From a bacterium (GTDB lineage Bacteria > Patescibacteriota > Minisyncoccia > JACQLN01), in NCBI GenBank assembly GCA_030697795.1, contig JAUYOV010000004.1, positions 11,831 through 75,830 on the forward strand: a stretch of DNA of 64,000 bases, read 5' to 3'. Below the pieces are notes generated by a model. It was not told where the DNA came from, searched no databases, and saw nothing but the letters and a program-made list of their open reading frames with translations. The translations under genes were made by a program, and so were the position numbers. Below are positions 168 to 53,876 of the stretch, piece by piece; the first letter of the stretch is position 1, and each line of letters begins with the position of its first letter.

Positions 168-280
168 TTAGTAAGGAAAATAAAAGAAATACGTCTTAAG
201 TTTATCAGTAACGCCTTAATAAAAACAATACCCAGCTTGCCTAGAAAGCTGGGTATTGTTATGCCACGTTTTGCGTGGGT

Positions 281-975
281 CAAGAAAGCCGTAAGCCGAA
301 TTCTGTTCCAATTTTGTTTGAGCAATAGCGAAATTACAAAATTGAGAACCCTGCGAAGCCCGTTAGGGCGAAGTAGGGTAGTCCGCCTTTGCTAAAGCTA
401 CGGCGGATCTCAATTTTTTATCTGTTCGCTACGCTCACAGAAAAAATTGGAGATAATCATCTGTCTGGGATTGTTATTGCTAACAACCTCTGGCGACTCT
501 TCCTTAATAATTTAGATTACTAAGGACACGGTCTTGCACCAAGTGGGGTTTACAACTACCTAGTATTGCTACTAAATAGAATCGCGTTTGACGCGACACT
601 TTTCACCTTTAGACTCAATTTGCATTGAGCTTAGTATAGTCTCTGTTGCATAGGCTCACGGAATCAGCTGTCATCAATGAACCTATATCCAATAAAGGAC
701 ACTTTCCCTGGGCTTGAACCTAATTTTCATTAGATCTGCTCCCGGTTGCATTTCGCAACCACTTGTTTTGCCAATTTAATCTGAGTTTACGAAGCTATTA
801 AATTGAGCACCCTGCGAAGCTTGTTAGAGCGAAGTAGGGCTCCACCGTCGCTAAAGCTATGGTGGATGCTCAACTTTATATTTATTCGCTAAGCTCATAA
901 ATAAAGTTGGCAGGTGTTCGGACTTTCCTCCCCTCGATTACTCTCGGGGCGATTATCTCACTTTCTTGACAATAG
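281..975 (-). ncRNA. rnpB: RNase P RNA (bacterial type A), unusually long (~695 nt) because of two inserted ~115-nt homologous modules
   Basis: On the minus strand: 5' GUCAAGAAAGUGAG...UCGAGGGGAGGAAAGUCCGAACACC (P1/P2/P4 5' strand; compare E. coli GGAGGGGAGGAAAGUCCGGGCUCC) and 3' ACAGAAUUCGGCUUACGGCUUUCUUGACC (compare E. coli ACAGAACCCGGCUUAUCGG). The P1 pairing GUCAAGAAAG/CUUUCUUGAC closes the molecule. No real ORF lies in 170-1000. Confidence 0.7.
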
Positions 976-1480: not shown

Positions 1481-3251
1481 TAAGCTTTAATTGTATCTCT
1501 TTATTACCGTTCCATTCGTTAATATCCAACTCATAAACAATATCTAAAGTGTCGCCGATTTTAAAATCTTCAGCAAGCCCAGCTGTGTCGCGTTTGACGC
1601 GATGATTAAAAAATAAAACTGGAAATTCTTTACTTGTTTTTTTATCATGGGCGAAAATTTTCAAATGCTCGGAATTCTTCCCTAAGAAAACAAGTTTTTT
1701 GACTTCAATATTCTTACTTAAAAATTTTGGCTTAAAATTATTCATGCCAAACGGTTCAAACTTTTTAAGTGAATCCATCAAACCCCAATCAATTTCGCCC
1801 AAGTTTATTTCTGCGCTAATTTTTAATTTTTTCTGCAATAACTCTGAAGTTAAAACATTTTTAGCGTATTTATTTAAACCCAATTTTATTTTTTCTGCAT
1901 TAGAAACTTCAAAAGTGCAACCACCGGCCGCAGGATGCCCGCCATACTGTATAAATAAATCTTTAACCGAACCTAAAGCGTCTATTAAATTAAATCCCTC
2001 TATACTACGAAGTGATCCCTTGGCTTTAGTCTCGTCAACACTTTGATAAAGAATTACCGGCCGTTGATAGCGTTCAGCAATTTTAGAAGCCACCAAACCC
2101 AAAAGGTTGACCGACCAATCGGCCGAACCTTCCATAATAAAACTGGGTAATTCTGGATAAGCGTCTATCCGCGAACGGACATCTTTTAAAACTTTCTCTA
2201 CTATCTGCTGGCGCCTACGGTTATTATCGTTGAGCGATAAAACCAATTCATTTATTTTAGATTCGTCGCTACTAGTTAAAAGTTCGTAGGCTAAATTAGC
2301 GTGAGCCATACGGCTGGCCGCGTTAAGGCGCGGGCCTAAAGTAAAACCTAAAGTAAAGCTATCTAAATTAGTAGTAAGGGTTTCTAAGTTATATTTAGCC
2401 TCAACTCCGGCTGACTCCATTAATTTTCTTAGGCCAATTCTTTTGGTTTGAGCCAGAACAATTAAACCATATTTGACCATAACCCTATTTTCATCTAAAA
2501 GCGACACCATATCGGCCACTGTAGCCATAGCCACTAAATCTAAAAGCCATTTTTCTTTACCCTCCGAAGCTTTATGCGTAGGAGGGCTACCTTGAGTTGA
2601 CATCAAAGCACAATAGAGCTTGAACACTAAACCCGCCCCACACAAACCCTTAAACGGATATGTATCGCTTTCTTGATAAGGATTTACAAAAGCCACTGTT
2701 GCTGGGTTTCCTGCCACGGTTTGATGGTGATCTACCACAATCACATCCACACCTTTCTCTTTCGCCCACTCTATTTCTTTAATATTGGTGGTACCGCAAT
2801 CTAAAGTTATTATAAGCTTAGCCCCATTTGAAATTATTGATTCTAAAGCAGTTTGATTAACCCCGTGCCCTTCTTTTTGCCGATCGGGCATATACACCTC
2901 TACTGGATAATTTATGCCTTTAAAATATTCGCCTAAAACCGTGGCTGAACAGACGCCATCTACATCGTAATCAGCGTAGATAACTATTTTTTCCTTGCCC
3001 TGCGAAGCCTTGTGCGAAGCAGGGTTACCATTTATTGCCCGCCTGATTCTCTCACAAGCCTTATCCATATCTTTAAGCAAAAAAGGATCATGCAAACCGC
3101 CATCATATTTTGGATTAAAAAAACTTTCTATTTTTTCTAGCGTATTCAAACCGCGCTCAAACAGCATTTGACTGACCATAGCCGGATACTCCGAAAACTT
3201 AGCTAAAAAATCAGGCCTGGCCTGATCACTAAAAATCCATTTATATTTCAT
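1458..3251 (-). CDS. recJ: Single-stranded-DNA-specific exonuclease RecJ (DHH/DHHA1)
   Basis: DYDVDGVCS and VIVVDHHQ DHH motifs; length 597 aa. Contains two in-frame GC-rich hairpin inserts, both encoding HKAS(Q/E)GKEK. Confidence 0.85.
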   Translation of the reverse strand: MKYKWIFSDQARPDFLAKFSEYPAMVSQMLFERGLNTLEKIESFFNPKYDGGLHDPFLLKDMDKACERIRRAINGNPASHKASQGKEKIVIYADYDVDGVCSATVLGEYFKGINYPVEVYMPDRQKEGHGVNQTALESIISNGAKLIITLDCGTTNIKEIEWAKEKGVDVIVVDHHQTVAGNPATVAFVNPYQESDTYPFKGLCGAGLVFKLYCALMSTQGSPPTHKASEGKEKWLLDLVAMATVADMVSLLDENRVMVKYGLIVLAQTKRIGLRKLMESAGVEAKYNLETLTTNLDSFTLGFTLGPRLNAASRMAHANLAYELLTSSDESKINELVLSLNDNNRRRQQIVEKVLKDVRSRIDAYPELPSFIMEGSADWSVNLLGLVASKIAERYQRPVILYQSVDETKAKGSLRSIEGFNLIDALGSVKDLFIQYGGHPAAGGCTFEVSNAEKIKLGLNKYAKNVLTSELLQKKLKISAEINLGEIDWGLMDSLKKFEPFGMNNFKPKFLSKNIEVKKLVFLGKNSEHLKIFAHDKKTSKEFPVLFFNHRVKRDTAGLAEDFKIGDTLDIVYELDINEWNGNKEIQLKLIDYNKQN

Positions 3252-11884: not shown

Positions 11885-14806
11885 ATGGTAACCAATATGG
11901 ATCTCTCTAGATTTAAAAAAGAACTAGGCGCCTTAAACCCCGAACAACGCCAAGCGGTGGAGACAATTGAGGGACCGGTTATGGTTATAGCCGGCCCTGG
12001 TACGGGAAAAACACAAATTTTAACTTTGCGGATTGCTAATATTTTAAACAAAACCGACACCAACCCCGAAAATATTCTAGCTTTAACTTTTACTGAATCT
12101 GCTACCGCCAACATGAGGCGTCGTCTAACCAGTTTGATCGGTACGCCTAGCTACTACATTAATATCCATACTTTTCACGGTTTTTGTAACAAGCTTATCC
12201 AAGATTACCCAGAAAACTTTCCAAAAATAATTGGCTCCACCAATGCTAATCAAGTAGATCAAATACAAATTATTAGAAAGATTATAGACGAGCATGGTTT
12301 TAAGAATTTGAAGCCATTCGGTAGTAAGTATTATTACGTTACCGAAATACTAAAAAACATCCGCCAATTAAAAAGCGAAGGTATTGGTCCTGTTGAATTT
12401 AAAAATATAACTTCTAAAATAAATCTCGAAGACCCCAAAGAGGAAAAAAATACCGAACGCTTAAAAGAACTATCTTTGGTATATAAAAAATATCAAGCCG
12501 AACTTTCAAAAAGAAAGCTATACGATTTTGAAGATATGATTTTGGAAACCATAAATTCGCTCAAAAAAGATAAGGATTTTTTGTTAGACCTTCAAGAAAA
12601 ATACCAATACATATTAGTAGACGAACACCAAGACACCAACGGCGCCCAAAATAAAGCCTTAGAGCTTTTAACCAATTATGATGAGAACCCAAACTTGTTT
12701 GTGGTAGGCGACGAAAAACAAGCTATTTACCGTTTTCAAGGCGCTAGTTTAGAAAACTTTTTATATTTTAAAGAAAAGTTTAAAAAAGCGAAATTAGTAG
12801 AATTAAAACAAAATTATCGCTCTACCCAAAAAATATTGGATGCCTCACATAGCTTAATAAAAAAAAATATAGCTGTCTTGGCTTTAACCAAACTCCAAGC
12901 CCAAAAAGGCAGGACCGACCTTCCTAGAAGGTCGGTCCTGCAGGTGGCAACCTGCGCTACACCCGAAATAGAATACCTTTTTATAACTCAAAAAATAAAA
13001 GAACTTCTAAGGCAAAAGGTTGAAGCTAGCAAAATTGCAATCTTATATAGAGAAAATAAAGATGCTTTTTCTGTTTCCGACTTTTTAACTAAACAGAATA
13101 TAAAACACGGCATAGAATCCGATGAAAACATATTAGAAGATATGGATATTAAAAAACTAAATATTCTTTTTGATGCCATAGAAAACTTTCCTTCTTTAGA
13201 ATTTTTAGCTCCAGCCTTACACCTAGATTTTTTAAATATAAACCCCTTAGAAGCTTATAAAGCCATAGAATCAAAAGATTTTAATAGTTCGCCTAATGTG
13301 TCTAACCTATTTAAAAAAATAGGTGAGCTTAAAAAATATAGCCGTAATAATGTTTTTGTTAAATTTTTTGAAAAAGTAATAAACGATACTGGTTTTTTAA
13401 AAAACATACTGGCCGAGGCCAATTACAACGAAAGATTAAATAAACTTCATGCTTTGTTTAGCGAAGTTAAAAAAATAAATTTTGCTAACCACAATTTTTC
13501 TTTACCAAACTATCTAAATCATTTAGAAATTTTAAGGGAACATAACTTGCCTATTCAAATTAAAACAAAAACATTACCCGCAAATGTTCGCTTAATGACG
13601 GCTCACCGAGCCAAAGGCCTAGAATTTGATTATGTATTTATTATAGGCGCCTACAATGGCCATTGGGGCAATAAAAGAAATATGAGCCATATAAAACTCC
13701 CCATAAAAACAAGCTTTGATGCTGATAAAATAGAAAAAAACGAGGATGAGCGCAGATTGTTTTATATGGCCATCACTCGAGCCAAAAAAGAAGCTTACAT
13801 AAGTTATTCCACTTCTTCGTTTGACGGCAAAGAGCAAGTGCCTAGCCAATTTATAAACGAAATCGATCCCGCCTTAAAAGAAGAACATATAATTGAGCAA
13901 AATCCAGAAATTAAAAAAATTGTACTAGCTTCAATTTCTAATAACAAAGCACCAAAAACAAATGAAAAAACTTTTGTGGTAGATATATTTTTGCGCCGTG
14001 GCTTCTCGCCTACCTCGCTAAATAATTATTTAACCTGCCCCTGGAATTTTTTCTATAACAATCTGCTTCGCATACCCAAAGCCCAAGCCAACTATTTAAT
14101 TTATGGCAACGCCAAGCACAAGGCCTTACAGCTTTTTTTTGATGAGAAAGAAAAAAATAAAAAAATAGGCTCTAAATTTATAATAGAAAAATTTATAGAA
14201 GATTTACGAAATTACCCTTTAATACCGAAGGATCATGAAACCTTGCTTAAAAAAGGAATAGAAAGTTTAACCGCCTATTATAATTTTTATAAAGATTCTT
14301 GGCCCGAAAAAACAGTAAACGAATACAACATTAAAGGAGTTAGTTTTAACTTAGGCGCGCAAGAAATAAAACTAAGCGGAAAACTAGATCGCTTAGAACT
14401 AAAACCAAATAGCCCAGCTGTTACAGTAGTAGATTACAAAACTGGAGCCGCCAAAAGCCGAAACGAAATTTTAGGCAACACCAAAAACGCCGATGGTAAT
14501 TATTTTAGACAACTTGTTTTCTACAAATTGCTTTTAGATATGTTACCCAACAAAAAATATAATATGCTGGCTGGTGCAATTGACTTCACTGAACCCCTCG
14601 ACTCCGCTCGACAAGGCTCGGGGCAAGCCGCTCGGGGCAAGCCTGCCTTTAAAAGAGAGGTTTTTGAAATTTCTAACGAAGAAACAAAAGCACTTAAAGA
14701 AACTATCACTAAATGCGCAAATGAAATTTTAAACTTAAAATTTTGGAACAAACTCTGCGGTGAAAAAGATTGTGAATATTGCGAGTTAAGAAAGTTAGTT
14801 TCTTAA
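11885..14806 (+). CDS. UvrD/PcrA-family SF1 helicase fused to a C-terminal PD-(D/E)xK nuclease domain with a Cas4/AddB-like Cys cluster
   Basis: AGPGTGKT Walker A, DEHQDTN motif II, DRLELK...VVDYKTG nuclease core, C...CGEKDCEYC. Contains two in-frame GC-rich inserts. Confidence 0.8.
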   Translation: MVTNMDLSRFKKELGALNPEQRQAVETIEGPVMVIAGPGTGKTQILTLRIANILNKTDTNPENILALTFTESATANMRRRLTSLIGTPSYYINIHTFHGFCNKLIQDYPENFPKIIGSTNANQVDQIQIIRKIIDEHGFKNLKPFGSKYYYVTEILKNIRQLKSEGIGPVEFKNITSKINLEDPKEEKNTERLKELSLVYKKYQAELSKRKLYDFEDMILETINSLKKDKDFLLDLQEKYQYILVDEHQDTNGAQNKALELLTNYDENPNLFVVGDEKQAIYRFQGASLENFLYFKEKFKKAKLVELKQNYRSTQKILDASHSLIKKNIAVLALTKLQAQKGRTDLPRRSVLQVATCATPEIEYLFITQKIKELLRQKVEASKIAILYRENKDAFSVSDFLTKQNIKHGIESDENILEDMDIKKLNILFDAIENFPSLEFLAPALHLDFLNINPLEAYKAIESKDFNSSPNVSNLFKKIGELKKYSRNNVFVKFFEKVINDTGFLKNILAEANYNERLNKLHALFSEVKKINFANHNFSLPNYLNHLEILREHNLPIQIKTKTLPANVRLMTAHRAKGLEFDYVFIIGAYNGHWGNKRNMSHIKLPIKTSFDADKIEKNEDERRLFYMAITRAKKEAYISYSTSSFDGKEQVPSQFINEIDPALKEEHIIEQNPEIKKIVLASISNNKAPKTNEKTFVVDIFLRRGFSPTSLNNYLTCPWNFFYNNLLRIPKAQANYLIYGNAKHKALQLFFDEKEKNKKIGSKFIIEKFIEDLRNYPLIPKDHETLLKKGIESLTAYYNFYKDSWPEKTVNEYNIKGVSFNLGAQEIKLSGKLDRLELKPNSPAVTVVDYKTGAAKSRNEILGNTKNADGNYFRQLVFYKLLLDMLPNKKYNMLAGAIDFTEPLDSARQGSGQAARGKPAFKREVFEISNEETKALKETITKCANEILNLKFWNKLCGEKDCEYCELRKLVS

Positions 14807-22633: not shown

Positions 22634-22791
22634 ACTTACTAAATTTCGAAATTCGAATATCGAAATCCGAAACCCTACTTCGCTAAAGCTTCGTAGGGCA
22701 CAGCAATATCACTTATTTGGATTTGCTTGCCCGCCGTAGTTTTAACAGAGGCGGGTTTCGAATTTCTGATTTCGTGCTTCGAATTTTATTT

Positions 22792-23653: not shown

Positions 23654-26044
23654 TTAGGAAAAATTTTCTTTGTTTTCCTCTTCTGTGTGTATATCTATAG
23701 CTTCTGGTGGAACTTCTGATTTTACTAAAACCTCTCTAGGTTTAGCCCCTTCACCGGGACCAATCATGCCTTGAGCTTCTAGAATATCGAGTAATCTTGC
23801 GGCGCGGGCGTAGCCGACTCTTAATCGTCTCTGGAGTAAAGAAGCCGAAGCTTTACCAGCCTGCATAATAGCTTCTTTGGCTTGGAGTAAAAGTTCATCT
23901 TCGTCACTAGAATCCATTTTATCAAAACTTACACCGGTAAGTATTGGTCTATGATCTGAGACAGCTTTTTCCAAACCAAGCGCTTCTTCTGGATTAGCAT
24001 CAGGCGCGTCTTCGGGTAGATTAGATCTTATAAACGAAACAACTTTTTTAACTTCTTTTTCCGAAACAAAAGTGCCTTGAATACGTTTGGGCTTGGGCGA
24101 ATCAGAAGTTACAAAAAGCATATCGCCCATGCCTAAAAGTTTTTCGGCGCCAGCCGAATCTATAATTGTCCGTGAATCTATTTGCGAAGCCACCGCAAAA
24201 GCTATGCGCGTGGTAATGTTAGCTTTAATTAAACCCGTAATAACTTCTACCGAGGGCCGCTGTGTGGCTAAAACCAAATGTATGCCCACCGCCCGCGCCA
24301 TCTGCGCTAAACGCACTACTGTAGCTTCTATTTCACGCCCGTAAGTAGACATTAAGTCGGCCAGTTCATCTATAATGATAACCAAATAAGGCATTAAATC
24401 GTCGCCTTTTTTAGCATCAACTTGAGAATTAAAACCGCCAATATCTCTAACTTTTTTTTCGGAAAGCAGGCTATATCTTCTTTCCATTTCTGAAGTCGCC
24501 CATTTTAAAGCCGACACCGCTTTTTTAGGCTCTACTATAACTGGGGTTAAAAGATGCGGAATACCATTATACAAAGTTAATTCAACTCTTTTAGGATCAA
24601 TCATTATAAAGCGTAAAATTTCTGGCGAATGTTGATACAGCAAATTAACAATTAACGAATTTATGGCTACGCTTTTACCCGAACCCGTGGCGCCCGCAAT
24701 AAGCAGATGAGGCATTCTGGTTAAAGCCGACCACATCGACCGGCCAGAAACATCTTTGCCTAAACCAATATTTAAAAAGTTTTTATGCTCCGAAGCCTCA
24801 AAACCCTGAAGCAAAGCTTTTAAACGCACCACCATAGATTTTTGATTGGGTATTTCTATGCCCACTAAAGATTTTCCCGGAATCGGCGCTTCTATTCTTA
24901 AAGATTCTCCGCCTAGGGCTAAAGATAAATCTTTTTGCAAAGCTAATATGCTAGCCAGTTTGACTCCAGTGGCTGGTTTTAAAGTAAACTGGGTTACCGC
25001 AGGGCCAATATTAACTTCCGACATTTCTACCGGAATATTAAAATTCTCTAAAGTTTTCTGAATAATTATGGCATTGCCCTTAATGTCGCCCGTCACCGGC
25101 ATAGAGCCTTCGTCTTCTAATAAATCTAATGGTGGAAATTTATAGTTAACGGAAAGTGGCAACACACTAAATCCGCTCGCCATATTTTCTTGTTTCTTTT
25201 TTGAAACCTCATCTGACTTGGCCATTACTGACGTACCTTGAGGAGAATTTATAGTGACAGTGTCTTCAGCCGGTTTGGGCGCTTCAACTTTTTTAGCGGT
25301 TTGAGGTAGTTTAGCTTTGCTGGCTAACGTTGCAATTTTAGTTACTAAACCTTTTTCTAAAACTAATTTTTTTTCTGGAATCATTTCGCCATTTTCGTCC
25401 GCCTTAAAAACAAATTTTTCTTTTATTTGATCTTTCAAAGGCAAACGAAAAACAATCAACATAGCCGAAAAGAAAAACGCCACAAAAAATATTAAAGAAC
25501 CCCAAAAACCAAACATCTGCCTAAACGGCCAGCCAAAATAATAACCCATTTTACCGCCAGCCTGATTTTGCGAAAATATTTCCATCAAGCCCAAAAAACT
25601 TAAAATTAGAACACTGCCCCCGATTATAGTGGAACCTAATATTTTTTTCTTGTCGGAAGTTAAAATAAAAAACGACATTAAAAACATCGTTAAAGGCACA
25701 AAGAAACTACCGGAACCAAACATATAATCGGCACCGGCTGTAATGGCTTCGGAAAAAGATCCCGACAAGCCAAAGAAAGCTAAGGTAGTTACCAAAGCCA
25801 CAGCCAGCAAAAGAACGCCCACTACGCTTCTTTTAACGCTTGATTCTAAATGGAGCCAAGAAGTTGTTCTTTTTGGCTTTTTTACTTGAGATTTTTTAAG
25901 ATTTTTAATATCCTCCTTTTCTTTTTCAGCAGGCATTAGGTTTAATCTATTACTAGAAAATAATAACATACAAAAAAGCCAAATAACAACAACGTTTTTC
26001 AGGAAGGGCGGTCCTTCCGATAGATTTCCTGCTATTTTTGGCAA
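23654..26044 (-). CDS. ftsK: DNA translocase FtsK/SpoIIIE; true start downstream of the ORF-track start, whose first codons overlap a REP
   Basis: GATGSGKS Walker A, C-terminal gamma wHTH domain, N-terminal TM segments. Confidence 0.9.
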   Translation of the reverse strand: MPKIAGNLSEGPPFLKNVVVIWLFCMLLFSSNRLNLMPAEKEKEDIKNLKKSQVKKPKRTTSWLHLESSVKRSVVGVLLLAVALVTTLAFFGLSGSFSEAITAGADYMFGSGSFFVPLTMFLMSFFILTSDKKKILGSTIIGGSVLILSFLGLMEIFSQNQAGGKMGYYFGWPFRQMFGFWGSLIFFVAFFFSAMLIVFRLPLKDQIKEKFVFKADENGEMIPEKKLVLEKGLVTKIATLASKAKLPQTAKKVEAPKPAEDTVTINSPQGTSVMAKSDEVSKKKQENMASGFSVLPLSVNYKFPPLDLLEDEGSMPVTGDIKGNAIIIQKTLENFNIPVEMSEVNIGPAVTQFTLKPATGVKLASILALQKDLSLALGGESLRIEAPIPGKSLVGIEIPNQKSMVVRLKALLQGFEASEHKNFLNIGLGKDVSGRSMWSALTRMPHLLIAGATGSGKSVAINSLIVNLLYQHSPEILRFIMIDPKRVELTLYNGIPHLLTPVIVEPKKAVSALKWATSEMERRYSLLSEKKVRDIGGFNSQVDAKKGDDLMPYLVIIIDELADLMSTYGREIEATVVRLAQMARAVGIHLVLATQRPSVEVITGLIKANITTRIAFAVASQIDSRTIIDSAGAEKLLGMGDMLFVTSDSPKPKRIQGTFVSEKEVKKVVSFIRSNLPEDAPDANPEEALGLEKAVSDHRPILTGVSFDKMDSSDEDELLLQAKEAIMQAGKASASLLQRRLRVGYARAARLLDILEAQGMIGPGEGAKPREVLVKSEVPPEAIDIHTEEENKENFS
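26000..26032. repeat. REP1 palindrome CAGGAAGGGCGGTCCTTCCGATAGATTTCCTGC at the 3' end of RAYT-1
   Basis: Further copies at 26526-26542 (inside RAYT-1), 26735-26750, 59691-59722; related sequence inside the helicase CDS at 12909-12941. Confidence 0.8.
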
Positions 26045-26706
26045 TCTTTATAGGAAAGCCAATCAAGAATAAAATCATCAAAGTCCTTTACACCGTCGAA
26101 ATAATCTGGAAAAGCTTTTTTGTTGATAATTTTTTGCTCTAATCTTTGAACACCTACATAATCAAGATAACTGGAATAATTATAACCATTTAAAAAATTT
26201 TGGGCCGCTAATTTATTTTTAATACCAGTTTCTTTCCAGTTAGGTTCAATCAACTTAATAGAATTTAAGTGTGTATAGGCAAAAATATATTTCAGATATT
26301 CATCTCTTTCAATATGTTTTGCTTGAAACCTTCCCTGAAATAAAGAACCGCTACGATCATGTCTTTTATTGAAATACATGGAATAACCGGTGGATACTTT
26401 TCCCATAAATTTAGAGAGTCCACCTTCTACAGTTTCTCTTGCAAGTAAATGGAAATGATTCGGCATTAATACATGTGCGCCTAAAGCAGTAATATCATCG
26501 CCAGTATTTACATCAAAAATATCTGGGAAGGACCGCCCTTCCAAAAGAAGCTCATTGATATCTACACGGTCATTGTTATTACAAAGATAAAGGAGCATCA
26601 AAAAACGTCTATATTCGCCTGTAGATTCAAATATAGTCCTCTTATCCACACCTCGATTGTAGATATGATAATATTCCCCTACAGAGAAAGTGAATTTACG
26701 TTGCAT
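26032..26706 (-). CDS. REP-associated tyrosine transposase (RAYT; IS200-like HuH Y1 transposase), copy 1
   Basis: GEYYHIYNRGV, HuH motif LMPNHFHLL, catalytic-Tyr helix region; flanked by REP1 palindromes. Confidence 0.7.
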   Translation of the reverse strand: MQRKFTFSVGEYYHIYNRGVDKRTIFESTGEYRRFLMLLYLCNNNDRVDINELLLEGRSFPDIFDVNTGDDITALGAHVLMPNHFHLLARETVEGGLSKFMGKVSTGYSMYFNKRHDRSGSLFQGRFQAKHIERDEYLKYIFAYTHLNSIKLIEPNWKETGIKNKLAAQNFLNGYNYSSYLDYVGVQRLEQKIINKKAFPDYFDGVKDFDDFILDWLSYKDCQK

Positions 26707-26918: not shown

Positions 26919-26927
26919 AAATTTAAT

Positions 26928-27013
26928 GGGCGTGCGGCTGAAAGGACTCCTCTGGACAGTTGGAGAAATCCGATTGAAGCTGGTGTCAGGAAATCCAGTC
27001 ACGCCCACCAATC
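26928..27013 (+). other. tRNA-like element (perfect 7-bp acceptor-type stem GGGCGTG/CACGCCC, terminal ACCA) with no canonical cloverleaf
   Basis: 86 nt between the two tRNAs. Possible degenerate class-II tRNA or tRNA-derived structured RNA; identity unresolved. Confidence 0.3.
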
Positions 27014-27017
27014 GTGT

Positions 27018-27123
27018 TCCGCGGTAACTCAGAGTGCTGACTTAAGGGCCGCAAGCCCCGGCCGGTTAGAGTGCCTAGCTGATAACTAGGAGGTCGTTGG
27101 TTCGAATCCAACCCGCGGAGCCA
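27018..27123 (+). tRNA. tRNA-Ile (anticodon GAT) carrying a ~31-nt hairpin insertion in the D-loop
   Basis: Acceptor TCCGCGG/CCGCGGA, D-stem ACTC/GAGT, anticodon arm CCTAG-CTGATAA-CTAGG, T-arm GTTGG-TTCGAAT-CCAAC, G73-CCA. Insert 27033-27063 AGTGCTGACTTAAGGGCCGCAAGCCCCGGCC. Confidence 0.5.
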
Positions 27124-34691: not shown

Positions 34692-34720
34692 ACATGTTCA
34701 ACATTCAATGTTGAACATGT
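34692..34720. repeat. REP2 palindrome ACATGTTCAACATTCAATGTTGAACATGT, left flank of RAYT-2
   Basis: Perfect palindrome; copies at 34901-34925 (inside the CDS) and 35390-35418. Confidence 0.85.
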
Positions 34721-34734
34721 TATAATTTTGATAT

Positions 34735-35391
34735 ATGAGAAAAACAATTTTGGCCGAAGGCGAATATTATCATATCTATAATCGTGGTGTAGAGAAAAGA
34801 AACATATTTTTAAACGATAACGATAAGTGGCGATTTATGACCCTCTTACTAATATTTCAAGGCAAGGGTCATATTGATAATATGCAACGTATTGTTAAAC
34901 TTGTTCAACATTCAATGTTGAACAAAGAACCATTTGACGACATCCTTTTGAATAAAAAGGTTGAACTGATATGTTTCTGTCTGATGCCAAATCATTATCA
35001 CCTTATATTAAAAGAAATTAAAAATGGAGGAATTTCTAGTTTTGGGCAAAGATTAGGTAACAGTTATACAAAATATTTCAACACTAAATATAAACGCACT
35101 GGACACTTATTTGGTGGAAGATTTCAAACGGTTCACATAACTCAAAATACATATCTCAAACATTTATCTTCTTATATACACAATAATCTAACAGAACTAA
35201 ATAATTGGAAAAAATTGGAAAACGAATATTTTTGGTCAAGTCTGCCAGATTATGTAAATAAAAACCGATGGGATAAGTTTCTAAACCCGGAAATAATTCT
35301 AAACCAGTTTAGGGGTAAAAATGATTATCTAAATTACATCAAAAATAATCGAAACAAAATTAAAAAACTAGATGGTTACTATATAGATTAA
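34735..35391 (+). CDS. REP-associated tyrosine transposase (RAYT), copy 2
   Basis: GEYYHIYNRGV, LMPNHYHLIL HuH motif; paralog of 26032..26706. Confidence 0.7.
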   Translation: MRKTILAEGEYYHIYNRGVEKRNIFLNDNDKWRFMTLLLIFQGKGHIDNMQRIVKLVQHSMLNKEPFDDILLNKKVELICFCLMPNHYHLILKEIKNGGISSFGQRLGNSYTKYFNTKYKRTGHLFGGRFQTVHITQNTYLKHLSSYIHNNLTELNNWKKLENEYFWSSLPDYVNKNRWDKFLNPEIILNQFRGKNDYLNYIKNNRNKIKKLDGYYID

Positions 35392-44541: not shown

Positions 44542-44670
44542 CCTTCGCTCCTCGCTTCGCTCAGAGCTACGGATGGCAAGCCATCTTTTTTACTGAAGGA
44601 ATCCAATAGCCTTTTGTGGCGAAGGATGTCCTTCCGTAGCTTTAGCGAAGGAGGACTACATTAATTAATT

Positions 44671-50895: not shown

Positions 50896-50929
50896 TAGCA
50901 CGAGAACTGCGATCGCAGTTCTCGTGCTA
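50896..50929. promoter_or_regulatory. Perfect 34-nt palindrome TAGCACGAGAACTGCGATCGCAGTTCTCGTGCTA in the promoter region of PaaX-like paralog 2
   Basis: REP3 family; candidate operator. Confidence 0.5.
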
Positions 50930-51721: not shown

Positions 51722-52690
51722 CTTGTAATGTCTCATATCTTATGCATAGGTTTTAGTTAGTATTTGAGCCATCTTTTGAGCAGGGGTTAAACCCTGTAAA
51801 CCTAGATGTGGACGATGGTTGATAAACTTGTCAGTGTAGGTTTTTAAGGAGCTATTCAAGGTGGTTAGAGACTGATTTAAGGATACTTTTCTCCAGAGTT
51901 CTTCGTCAATGGTTCTAATGAATCTCTCTACTATGGAATTGTCTCTAGGTTTTCTGATTCTTGAATAACGATGCAGAATCTTTAACTTGTTTAATTCTTG
52001 AACAAACTCTTTCTGAAACTCGGGACCATTATCTGTTTGAATCATCCCTACTTTAAAAGGTAATCTAGTTAAAGCTGATCGTAAAGCTCGGCTGGCTGAT
52101 GCCATAGAAAGTTTTTCTGTAACAATACAGACTGGATATATATCTGGTAGCCACATCCACGAAAACATACTGGTATCTTCTAGATTGATTTTTAACCATT
52201 AGATGCTTGGTATCTAACAAAACTAGCTTGCCGTCCTCTTGGGGTCTAAAGATGGGAGGTAGTTGTCTGTGTCTCCTTTGGTATCTATGTTTTGATTTAA
52301 TCAGCTGGTTTCTTTTAAGGACGCGGTAGGTTGTTATGTTGGTAATGCTGATACCTTGAGCCTTCAGGTAAAGAACTATCTTTTGATGACACCAACCCTC
52401 GGTTTTTCTTAAATGAATAATCTTTTCTTCTAACTCCAGAGAGGTCTGCTTGGGATGGGCACTTAAAGGCATCGGTCGAAAACTTTGAAGAGTGGGATAC
52501 ATACCCAACCAGCGGCTGATGGTAGATTGGTTGAAACCAAAGTATCTACTGATTCTCGACTGCGACCAACCTAACTCTTTAAGTTGCCAAACTTGGCGTC
52601 TGACTGCGATAATGTTTTTGTGAATGTGCATATATGGTGAGTGTATCATTTGACTACTCACCTATGCATTTTGAATGAAACATTACAATT
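51722..52690 (-). mobile_element. IS481-family-like insertion sequence (~970 bp) with imperfect ~30-bp terminal inverted repeats (TTGTAATGTYTCAT...ATGCATAGGT)
   Basis: Left IR 51722-51752 matches the reverse complement of right IR 52655-52690; encodes an HTH plus DDE (rve) transposase. Confidence 0.7.
51740..52661 (-). pseudogene. IS481-like DDE transposase split into two overlapping ORFs by a frameshift in a T5/A5 homopolymer (~52112-52116)
   Basis: The ORFs 52065..52661 (HTH plus start of rve) and 51740..52168 (DNGPEF...rve core) are related by a +1 shift. IS481 transposases are normally single-ORF. Confidence 0.55.
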
Positions 52691-53876
52691 ACTCTATAAC
52701 TCCTCCGCCTAGCAGTTCTTCACCCTGATAAAATACTACCGATTGGCCAGAGGCGACAGCGCGGACTGGTTTTTCAAAAACCACCTTCCACCGAGCTGAG
52801 CTCGGTCCGCTTTCAAGCTTTGATAACATTGCCGAAATTGGTTCTTGTCTGTAACGAATAGATGCCTGAATTTTAACCAACTTCTCTGATTCCTCTTTTG
52901 TACACCGAGCATACGATCGTATGCTCGGTGTATCATTATTTATAAAACTAACATTAGTAGCAATTAACTCTTTTGATTCTAAAGCCGACATATCTGTAAT
53001 AGGCGAAACGATTAAAGTATTAGTTTCGTAATCTTTTTTAGCAACGTAATACGGCCCAGTACCTCCTATGCCGATTCCTTTTCGTTGGCCAATGGTGTAA
53101 AAATATAAACCGGCATGTGTGCCAATTTTTTGCCCAGAAGTTGTAACAATATCGCCAATTTCTTTTTTAACGTACGGCTTTATAAATTCTTTAATATCCA
53201 CCGGCCCCATAAAACAAATTCCCTGTGAATCCTTTTTATTTGCCGTAGATAAACCCGCACCTTTCGCAAGTTTTCTAACTTCCGCTTTAGAGTCTATTTC
53301 GCCTATGGGGAATAAGCACTTAGCCAGTTGTTTTTGCTTGAGAGTCCAAAGGAAATAGGACTGATCTTTGTCTAAATAGCGAGCACGCAATAGCTTATAG
53401 CTTTTAGCTTTTAGCTTATTAGAATTTGAAAATTGGAAATTAAAAATTGGAAATTCCCGCGCCACGCGAGCATAGTGGCCCGTGGCAATATAATCAGCTC
53501 CAAGAGAAATAGCTTTTTCAAAAAATAAACCAAATTTAATTTCTTTATTACACATTACATCTGGGTTTGGAGTTCGCCCAACTGCATATTCGCGAAGCAT
53601 ATAATCTACCACCAAAGCTTTATATTCTTTTGTAAAATCCCAAGTTTCAAAGGGTATATTTAATTTTAAACAAACCCGCATAGCATCAGCACGATCTTCC
53701 TGCCACAAGCAAGGCCAAGCTGGATCGCTCCAGTTTTTCATAAATACACCGATTACATTATAGCCTTCATTTTTCAATAACAAAGCAGCAACAGAGCTAT
53801 CAACTCCGCCACTCATGCCTACATAAACCTTTCGACTCCGCTCAGGGCAAGTTTTTTGACCAACCGTATTTGACAT
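52689..53876 (-). CDS. mnmA: tRNA-specific 2-thiouridylase MnmA
   Basis: VGMSGGVDSSV PP-loop. Carries three in-frame repeat insertions; the IS abuts its stop codon. Confidence 0.85.
   Translation of the reverse strand: MSNTVGQKTCPERSRKVYVGMSGGVDSSVAALLLKNEGYNVIGVFMKNWSDPAWPCLWQEDRADAMRVCLKLNIPFETWDFTKEYKALVVDYMLREYAVGRTPNPDVMCNKEIKFGLFFEKAISLGADYIATGHYARVAREFPIFNFQFSNSNKLKAKSYKLLRARYLDKDQSYFLWTLKQKQLAKCLFPIGEIDSKAEVRKLAKGAGLSTANKKDSQGICFMGPVDIKEFIKPYVKKEIGDIVTTSGQKIGTHAGLYFYTIGQRKGIGIGGTGPYYVAKKDYETNTLIVSPITDMSALESKELIATNVSFINNDTPSIRSYARCTKEESEKLVKIQASIRYRQEPISAMLSKLESGPSSARWKVVFEKPVRAVASGQSVVFYQGEELLGGGVIE

Follow-up and report, generated by a model that had tools for sequence, protein, structure and literature searches.

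Two in-frame hairpins in recJ of a patescibacterial genome are probably intragenic copies of a dispersed REP/RPE-like repeat

The 64-kb stretch of DNA analysed here (the window) has a G+C content of 38% and belongs to a metagenome-assembled genome (MAG) of the Patescibacteria, or candidate phyla radiation (CPR). Its recJ gene contains two palindromes, which are read in frame and encode a duplicated short peptide. This locus raises the question of whether these palindromes are native parts of RecJ, signals acting at the RNA or DNA level, or copies of a repetitive element written into the gene. We consider it very probable that both are intragenic copies of a dispersed, strand-asymmetric miniature hairpin repeat, similar to the repetitive extragenic palindromes (REPs) and the palindromic elements of Rickettsia (RPEs). 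The element is named here the GA-hairpin and is described on its GAAG, or folding, strand. The coordinates of all features are given in Table 1.

The original prediction reported two 27-nt hairpins in frame in recJ, at positions 2560-2586 and 2998-3024, and a duplicated peptide HKAS(Q/E)GKEK; the sequences, positions and peptides were exact. Both hairpins, CCCTCCGAAGCTTTATGCGTAGGAGGG (site 2) and CCCTGCGAAGCCTTGTGCGAAGCAGGG (site 1), begin at the third base of a codon of the coding strand, occupy the same codon phase, and yield the peptides SPPTHKASEGKEK and NPASHKASQGKEK, which fit the pattern (G)xPxxHKASxGKEK. The coding strand reads (AA)C CCT GCT TCG CAC AAG GCT TCG CAG GG(C) at site 1, giving NPASHKASQG followed by KEK, and (AG)C CCT CCT ACG CAT AAA GCT TCG GAG GG(T) at site 2, giving SPPTHKASEG followed by KEK. 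Likeness between the two copies extends over 41 nt (TTTTCYTTR-hairpin-YTACC). The pattern CCCTNCGAAGCN{3,12}GCGWAGNAGGG has five matches in the window versus 0.00 expected from 100 shuffles, and three of these are located outside recJ. The matches at 349-378 and 810-839 lie inside the RNase P RNA gene, so that the family tie proposed earlier between this gene and recJ holds. A further element, thought to occupy positions 22663-22688, has the stem of the same family as predicted but is located 10 nt away, at 22673-22698, in the intergenic region upstream of recA. The loop comprises 5 nt in the recJ copies and 8 nt in the RNase P copies.

An alignment of 32 RecJ orthologues, complemented by a wider set of 120 homologues, identified both peptides as lineage-specific, as had been expected. 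The 10-residue insert at site 1, placed right before the motif-I strand KEKIVIYxDYDVDG, occurs only in the window protein, P0003, and P0010. A gap is present in the other 29 of the 32 sequences, and the closest orthologue, P0002 (78% identity), has no insert at this site. Comparison of filled and empty orthologous sites at the DNA level defined a net insert of 30 nt. Site 2 corresponds to a length-variable loop ahead of EKWLLDLVA; the hairpin peptide was found here in the window protein, P0003, and P0017, and in reverse orientation in P0015. The peptide of the latter, ALRSFSEGG, is the translation of the opposite strand of the hairpin, and the respective DNA (L127, positions 3043-3068) contains the canonical 26-nt element tgCCCTCCGAAGCTTTAGCGAAGGAGGGa on the coding strand, i.e. 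a flipped copy in the same loop.

Only five of the 120 homologues carry the hairpin peptide, and the carriers are scattered among non-carriers in a neighbour-joining tree. This distribution implies several gains, or else many precise losses and at least one gain for the inverted copy. In another genome, L001, the two recJ copies are identical over 41 nt, flanks included, but display several differences from those in the window, which indicates recent copying or homogenisation inside one genome. Many orthologues natively have the GKEK portion of the repeated peptide at both sites. At the DNA level, both recJ sites natively end with ...(C)AAG(G)AAAA (K-E-K), matching the flank of the hairpin.

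The placement in loops, also anticipated in the original prediction, agrees with the available structures. The solved RecJ structure 8y30 has alignment gaps at exactly both insert sites. In an AlphaFold model of the window protein (pLDDT 87.3, pTM 0.85), site 1 is part of the loop that connects helix 62-74 to strand 88-93 (pLDDT of the block about 71), and site 2 of the one connecting helices 205-218 and 232-246 (residues 221-228 with pLDDT below 50). Both recJ hairpins are thus lineage-specific insertions that, according to the model, fall into low-confidence surface loops of the DHH domain. The inserts add 10 and 9 codons, both multiples of three bases, and fall into disordered surface loops, so that RecJ stays intact; every invariant residue of the DHH motifs is kept in the orthologue alignment. 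The view that an essential gene tolerates these insertions was overstated for recJ, which is not an established essential gene, and is fair for the RNase P RNA gene.

RecJ has a third lineage-specific insert, HRVKRDTA (residues ~549-557; window positions 1588-1602), which is encoded by a small GC hairpin, TCGCG-TTTGA-CGCGA. It is missing in all orthologues but P0016, which has a longer insert in the same place, and it is modelled as coil with pLDDT <50. The 15-mer of this hairpin recurs at 583-597 in the RNase P RNA gene, possibly as a chance match.

The survey for GA-hairpins was extended to 185,579 genomes, one per species, using the pattern CCCTNCGAAGCN{3,12}GCGAAGNRGGG. At least 120 matching stretches were found; the rough chance expectation is about 20. 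The matches listed span the Alpha-, Beta-, Gamma-, and Deltaproteobacteria, Bacteroidota, Verrucomicrobiota (including Akkermansia), Planctomycetota, Acidobacteriota, Nitrospirota, Actinomycetes, Dependentiae, and Patescibacteria/Saccharibacteria. As judged from these sequence matches, the GA-hairpin family is pan-bacterial, occurs in most phyla, and is not peculiar to the window genome. BLAST analysis of a 32-nt unit against 72,556 plasmids gave four partial matches only, in replicons of Sinorhizobium and Ponticoccus. No Rfam family covered the GA-hairpin at the gathering threshold in the window and 15 hairpin loci, and a full-text literature search with the exact hairpin sequences returned nothing relevant.

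Low-GC genomes contain the hairpin within long open reading frames (ORFs), with the GAAG strand mostly antisense and with encoded peptides such as PSFAKASEGK and PPSHKASEGK. The in-frame hosts, named from reading the translated ORFs and not from a domain search, include Fpg, SerRS, LeuRS, IleRS, ThrRS, TsaD, an ATP-dependent DNA ligase, TatD, RlmN, NUDIX, and FemAB proteins, with the aminoacyl-tRNA synthetase, Fpg, DNA ligase, and TsaD cases located in other CPR bacteria; alanine racemase and ComF are hosts in the sense orientation. The 26-nt hairpin together with CAAG makes exactly 30 nt. Another frequent context is that of tRNA and tmRNA genes: 32 of the 124 matches listed are located within 300 nt of such a gene, and 24 of these are downstream and co-oriented, often with a T-run. 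Two repeat-derived peptides, LLRPKRRASQGK and SAFAKATADKGK, were detected in an RlmN-like ORF at locus L053; the second apparently originates from a variant of the hairpin-B type described below.

The GA-hairpin consists of a tag GCNTG (mostly ..TG), a 6-bp GC-rich stem CCCTNC/GNAGGG, a symmetric internal loop G-N-A/G-N-A (GAAGC...GCGAAG), two G-C pairs, and a YTYR tetraloop. Two sheared G.A pairs, one on each side of a central pair, can form in the internal loop. A length of 26 nt is dominant (76 of the 120 unique matches listed), and the loops among the matches listed are CTTG, TTTA, TTCA, or CTCG. The 5' tag is non-palindromic and is kept on the GAAG strand only: G(-5) occurs in 58% of the 120 matches listed, C(-4) in 53%, T(-2) in 62%, and G(-1) in 81%, position -3 being free (N) and +1 a pyrimidine. 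At the free stem position 5/-5, Watson-Crick pairs of four types occur in 101 of 120 matches listed versus 50.5 expected from the marginals, and the ratio of G.T/T.G to A.C/C.A is 6:1 among the 120 unique matches, favouring the GAAG strand. The CPR stems include CCCTGC/GCAGGG, CCCTCC/GGAGGG, CCCTAC/GTAGGG, CCCTGC/GTAGGG, CCCCGC/GTGGGG, CCCTGC/GTGGGG, and TCCGCC/GGCGGA. In the CPR recJ and RNase P copies, all non-Watson-Crick pairs are G.T on the GAAG strand, i.e. A-C on the sense strand of recJ or RNase P RNA. The GAAG strand out-folds its complement in all four pairs tested, with DNA and RNA parameters alike, and as RNA it folds with -13 to -22 kcal/mol. The peptides differ between genomes (PASHKASQ, PTSPEASR, PTSPGASQ, PPSHEAME), whereas the GAAGC/GCGAAG boxes and the stem pairing stay. 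At the level of sequence comparison, these patterns, with their compensatory stem changes, show that the conserved entity is a nucleic-acid structure and not a peptide; the peptide in RecJ is accordingly a passenger. The idea that the element is built around the d(GCGAAGC) mini-hairpin was dropped because the dominant CCCTCC variant does not contain this heptamer.

The RNase P RNA gene of the window received 68 bits in Rfam (E 2.7e-20), which is under the gathering threshold, and its ends were mis-placed. This low score is due to the interruption of the gene by two modules of ~143 nt, M1 and M2. They are homologous, each with four hairpins, and compensatory changes are seen between them. Full-length type-A RNase P RNA genes of two relatives, L002 (149.7 bits) and L004 (116.9 bits), were found downstream of recJ-rnhA; in all relatives in which the RNase P gene was located, it is a neighbour of recJ and rnhA. 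Module M2 is present in L004 and L127 and absent in L002, while M1 is present in L127 and absent in both L004 and L002. A P12 insertion containing a GA-hairpin occurs in L004 and L002 but not in the window, and GA-hairpins of L127 correspond in position to all three modules. Gain and loss of hairpin modules in RNase P RNA therefore proceed on the short timescale that also applies to the inserts of recJ. Taken together, these comparisons show that copies were gained independently, or exchanged, among close relatives in both recJ and RNase P RNA.

In other phyla, some GA-hairpins are accompanied by a nuclease gene. A single-domain GIY-YIG gene (PF01541) of about 80 codons is present at 13 of the 120 hairpin loci listed and usually starts 3-150 nt past the hairpin on the GAAG strand. 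In the reciprocal test, all four independent loci of this GIY-YIG clade had GA-type hairpins within about 160 nt upstream. Three of these four also have a tRNA or tmRNA gene whose encoded CCA opens an inverted hairpin, CCAxxxTTCGC..GCTWCxxxTGG-CAGGCC, with the tag GGCCTG on the other strand. The order of a tRNA or tmRNA gene with CCA beginning an inverted GA-hairpin, a sense GA-hairpin, and the 80-aa GIY-YIG gene was seen at loci L128-L134, L078, L012, L046, and L019. The GGAGG 3' arm of the sense hairpin could double as a Shine-Dalgarno sequence of the GIY-YIG gene. The nearest solved relatives of the encoded proteins are UPF0213 and SLX1, and NCBIfam gave no assignment for this clade.

The situation in recJ resembles that described for several known repeats. 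REPs contained wholly within ORFs are documented, many of them in replication and repair genes such as uvrA/B/D, polA, recBCD, dnaE, and ligase (PMC3733652), and RPEs are palindromic elements inserted in frame in Rickettsia genes (PMC10969869). Like the repeats of the REP/REPIN-RAYT system, the GA-hairpin is an imperfect palindrome in the range of 20-40 nt, with a tag at one end that is not itself palindromic; its G.T pairs are confined to one strand, and it forms inverted doublets and is found inside ORFs, including those of repair genes. It differs by the tag, which is GCNTG and not the tetranucleotide GTAG or CGTC of REPs (PMC3733652), by the absence of a Y1 transposase gene flanked by GA-hairpins in the window and at the 120 loci, and by a sequence kept across phyla, whereas REP families are usually lineage-specific. 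Similarly to RPEs, the recJ copies are in-frame, fold-compatible palindromic repeats of a kind found in unrelated housekeeping genes. RPEs, however, are ~100-150 bp long and restricted to Rickettsia, while the GA-hairpin unit has only ~30 nt (10 codons) and occurs in most phyla, here in a Patescibacteria MAG. With a tagged hairpin family found across most phyla, the recJ case is a new example of a known phenomenon and not a new kind of system; the novel aspects are the CPR host lineage, the very small 30-nt unit, the conservation of one sequence across phyla, and the tRNA-trailer and GIY-YIG context. Three points go beyond the original prediction: the family is pan-bacterial, its folding strand is antisense to recJ, and insertions of REPs and RPEs within genes, frequently those for DNA repair, have been described before (PMC3733652; PMC10969869).

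The Ssn nucleases offer a further comparison. These small GIY-YIG proteins bind a tagged hairpin exclusively as single-stranded DNA (ssDNA) and on just one of the strands, and cleave upstream of the hairpin (PMC11893778). The GA-hairpin, too, is a repeated hairpin that receives its orientation from a conserved upstream tag; by analogy, the strand asymmetry of its wobble pairs and stability may parallel this strand-specific logic, and a small single-domain GIY-YIG gene stands beside the repeat at the loci mentioned above. The arrangement is not the same, since GA-hairpins are located upstream of the GIY-YIG gene, between it and the tRNA or tmRNA gene, and not on both flanks. We tentatively propose that the GA-hairpin might be the cognate site of the 80-aa GIY-YIG clade, with one ~30-nt tagged ssDNA hairpin near-identical across >10 phyla, and that the two might form a pan-bacterial, Ssn-like mobile or homing pair, whose orphan hairpins colonise coding sequences, as the decapeptides PSFAKASEGK and PPSHKASEGK, and RNase P RNA in the streamlined genomes of CPR bacteria. 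Spread would then proceed via an ssDNA intermediate recognised by a hairpin-specific nuclease, the candidate being the GIY-YIG protein encoded beside the hairpin in other phyla, as in the case of Ssn and its hairpin repeats. Alternatively, copies may spread by local ectopic conversion or allele exchange.

Several observations weigh against a mobile repeat of this kind. No target-site duplication was evident between filled and empty recJ sites. The site-1 junction is identical in three lineages at the DNA level; since these are scattered in the tree, it could reflect allele exchange or repeated precise loss and not repeated transposition. A GIY-YIG gene of the respective clade was seen neither in the 64-kb window nor at the loci of the relatives. 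By inspection, the GA-hairpin has no CGTC/GTC tag and is outside the pattern of the Ssn-related motif (SRM), HGTCWY...RNCYNB. Finally, the tRNA trailers and an RNase P RNA at locus L122, in which the GA-hairpin forms the P19-site part of a high-scoring molecule, carry the element in RNA sense, which may leave room for an RNA-level role of the family.

That role, in its full form, would make the hairpin a functional RNA module, i.e. a protein-binding site or a capped helix of very high stability, through which the recJ copies regulate the stability or translation of recJ mRNA. The matches listed just downstream of tRNA or tmRNA genes (24 of 124, in RNA sense and often with T-runs), the L122 hairpin, the RNA-sense orientation of hairpin B in both RNase P modules of the window, and the high stability of the GAAG-strand RNA fold would fit such a module. 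Nevertheless, we regard it as quite unlikely: the recJ mRNA carries the weaker-folding UUCG strand, with A-C mismatches in relatives where the GAAG strand has G.U/G.T pairs; the orientation flips between relatives; most RecJ orthologues are devoid of the hairpin; and Rfam has no family for it. Likeness to terminator or tRNA-trailer hairpins, which is evident where the GA-hairpin follows a tRNA 3' end and precedes a T-run in other phyla, does not extend to the recJ copies, which are inside an ORF, antisense, and without a T-run. Local recombination or template switching via microhomology, from the RNase P gene to recJ or from site to site, followed by homologous recombination of recJ alleles between strains, would need no element-encoded enzyme. 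The proximity of recJ, rnhA, and the RNase P gene, the match between the native end of the recJ sites and the element flank, the identical copies in L001, and the shared site-1 junction are all in line with this scenario. It leaves unexplained, however, the same 26-30-nt unit with its 5' tag in unrelated genes and phyla as well as the flipped copy in L127. The difference in loop length between the recJ and RNase P copies also speaks against it, as does L002, which has the site-1 copy and an RNase P gene without the hairpin-A module; we regard this scenario as unlikely.

Two other explanations were considered. Hairpins could serve, similarly to DUS or NTS, as marks by which DNA is recognised in natural transformation or incoming ssDNA is restricted, and be enriched in genome-maintenance genes. 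The window indeed has two copies in recJ and one upstream of recA, other genomes have copies in Fpg, DNA ligase, and TatD genes, NTS/SsnA has a modulating effect on Neisseria transformation, and maintenance genes are enriched in DUS (PMC11893778). Yet DUS occur about once per kb, as opposed to about 8 GA-hairpins per 64 kb, many GA-hairpins reside in aminoacyl-tRNA synthetase genes, RNase P RNA, and tRNA trailers, only 2% of NTS are intragenic (PMC11893778), and no cognate nuclease was seen in the window, all of which makes marks of this type very improbable. As to the possibility that the peptides are native, selected RecJ loops with hairpin potential as a by-product, the native GKEK at both sites in many orthologues is the single point in its favour. 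This reading is effectively refuted by the absence of the peptides from most orthologues, by their variation (PASHKASQ, PTSPEASR, PTSPGASQ) under constant stem pairing and GAAGC/GCGAAG boxes, and by the presence of the same DNA in non-coding RNA genes, including the RNase P copies, and in intergenic regions. Intragenic copies of a REP/RPE-like repeat are the most probable explanation of the recJ hairpins.

Table 1. Positions of recJ, the RNase P RNA gene, and GA-hairpin elements in the 64-kb window (for hairpins, strand refers to the folding strand)
Feature	Position	Strand	Remarks
recJ ORF, 597 aa	1458..3251	-	DHH, DHHA1, and RecJ_OB domains; intact; hosts both inserts
Site-1 GA-hairpin	2998..3024	+	antisense to recJ; RecJ residues ~75-84, GNPASHKASQ, just before strand beta-1 / motif I
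Site-2 GA-hairpin	2560..2586	+	GCGTAG variant, middle A.A replaced by A-T pair; RecJ residues ~222-231, SPPTHKASEG; variable inter-helix loop
Site-1 41-nt unit	2989..3029	+	TTTTCCTTG + hairpin + TTACC
Site-2 41-nt unit	2551..2591	+	TTTTCTTTA + hairpin + CTACC
Canonical 26-nt GA-hairpin	22673..22698	-	intergenic, upstream of recA, on recA sense strand
Partner hairpin	22730..22755	+	CCCGCC GTAGT TTTA ACAGA GGCGGG; inverted, GCTTG tag ahead; doublet with 22673-22698
Degenerate GA-hairpin	44630..44655	+	CCTTCCGTAGCTTTAGCGAAGGAGGA; between rpsM and rpsK; from a looser scan
RNase P RNA gene, type A, ~695 nt	276..970	-	P1 GTCAAGAAAG (970-961) pairs with CTTTCTTGAC (288-279); CR-I ~930, CR-V ~305
Module M2, 143 nt	308..450	-	P19 site; hairpin A 349-378 (GA strand +), hairpin B 382-407 (GA strand -)
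Module M1, 144 nt	769..912	-	after P4 5' strand; hairpin A 810-839, degenerate hairpin B 841-866

In total, the window contains five exact-pattern copies and about three degenerate ones, i.e. ~8 per 64 kb. Inverted A/B doublets are present in both RNase P modules and upstream of recA, as well as at alphaproteobacterial and Akkermansia loci, whereas the recJ copies are singletons. An interpretation of the recA and recJ copies as LexA/SOS boxes was dropped, since the same element occurs in RNase P RNA, aminoacyl-tRNA synthetase genes, and tRNA trailers. The GC skew of the plus strand is negative throughout the window (-0.08 to -0.22), and nearly all genes are encoded on the minus strand, which points to the latter as the leading strand. 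The folding strand of five of the six A-type copies is on the plus strand, and we infer that in these copies it represents the leading-strand template and the transcribed strand. Such orientation would limit ssDNA exposure of the folding strand and hairpin extrusion, and would leave the weaker UUCG hairpin in mRNA.

Other repeat families were also detected in the window. Two genes for Y1_Tnp, or REP-associated-transposase-like, proteins are located at 26032..26706 (minus strand) and 34735..35391 (plus strand); each has its own hairpin on both sides and is interrupted in frame by it. The hairpin of the first gene, GGAAGG-GCGGT-CCTTCC, occurs near 26002, 26530, and 26738, and that of the second, GTTCAACATTCAATGTTGAAC, at 34696, 34903, and 35394. 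These genes were rejected as mobilisers of the GA-hairpin because each is flanked by a different hairpin and this Y1 type is present at none of the 120 GA-hairpin loci. The motif associated with the first Y1 gene has seven copies in the window versus 0.08 expected. An inverted pair of this motif, GGACCGNCCTTCC, forms a perfect 33-nt palindrome (12909-12941) in ORF 11885..14806, in frame between the helicase N- and C-domains of a UvrD/AddA-like helicase-nuclease, so that a second repeat family is present in a repair gene. At 52901-52932 (in ORF 52689..53876) and 50896-50929 (intergenic), the sequence CGATCG forms the centre of two long, perfect palindromes with stems of 14 and 15 bp. A GC-rich stretch of ~130 nt at 26919-27048, with a long-range stem GGGCGTGCGG...CACGCCC and no Rfam match, is possibly a structured RNA; its neighbours are tRNA-His on one side and, on the other, a weak tRNA-like Rfam match at 27049-27119 (30 bits; not called by ARAGORN).

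The intragenic GA-hairpins indicate that even highly streamlined CPR genomes tolerate repeats that write 10-codon cassettes in housekeeping proteins and 140-nt modules in RNase P RNA. The latter modules explain why Rfam misses the RNase P gene of the window. For genome annotation, peptides such as PSFAKASEGK and PPSHKASEGK should be recognised as repeat-derived and not taken as signals of homology. Conservation of the hairpin across phyla, its tRNA-trailer context, and its link to a small GIY-YIG gene point to a hairpin/nuclease pair, which could extend the Ssn toolbox of sequence-specific ssDNA nucleases. If true, this pair would be a cross-phylum source of protein loop insertions and RNA expansion segments.

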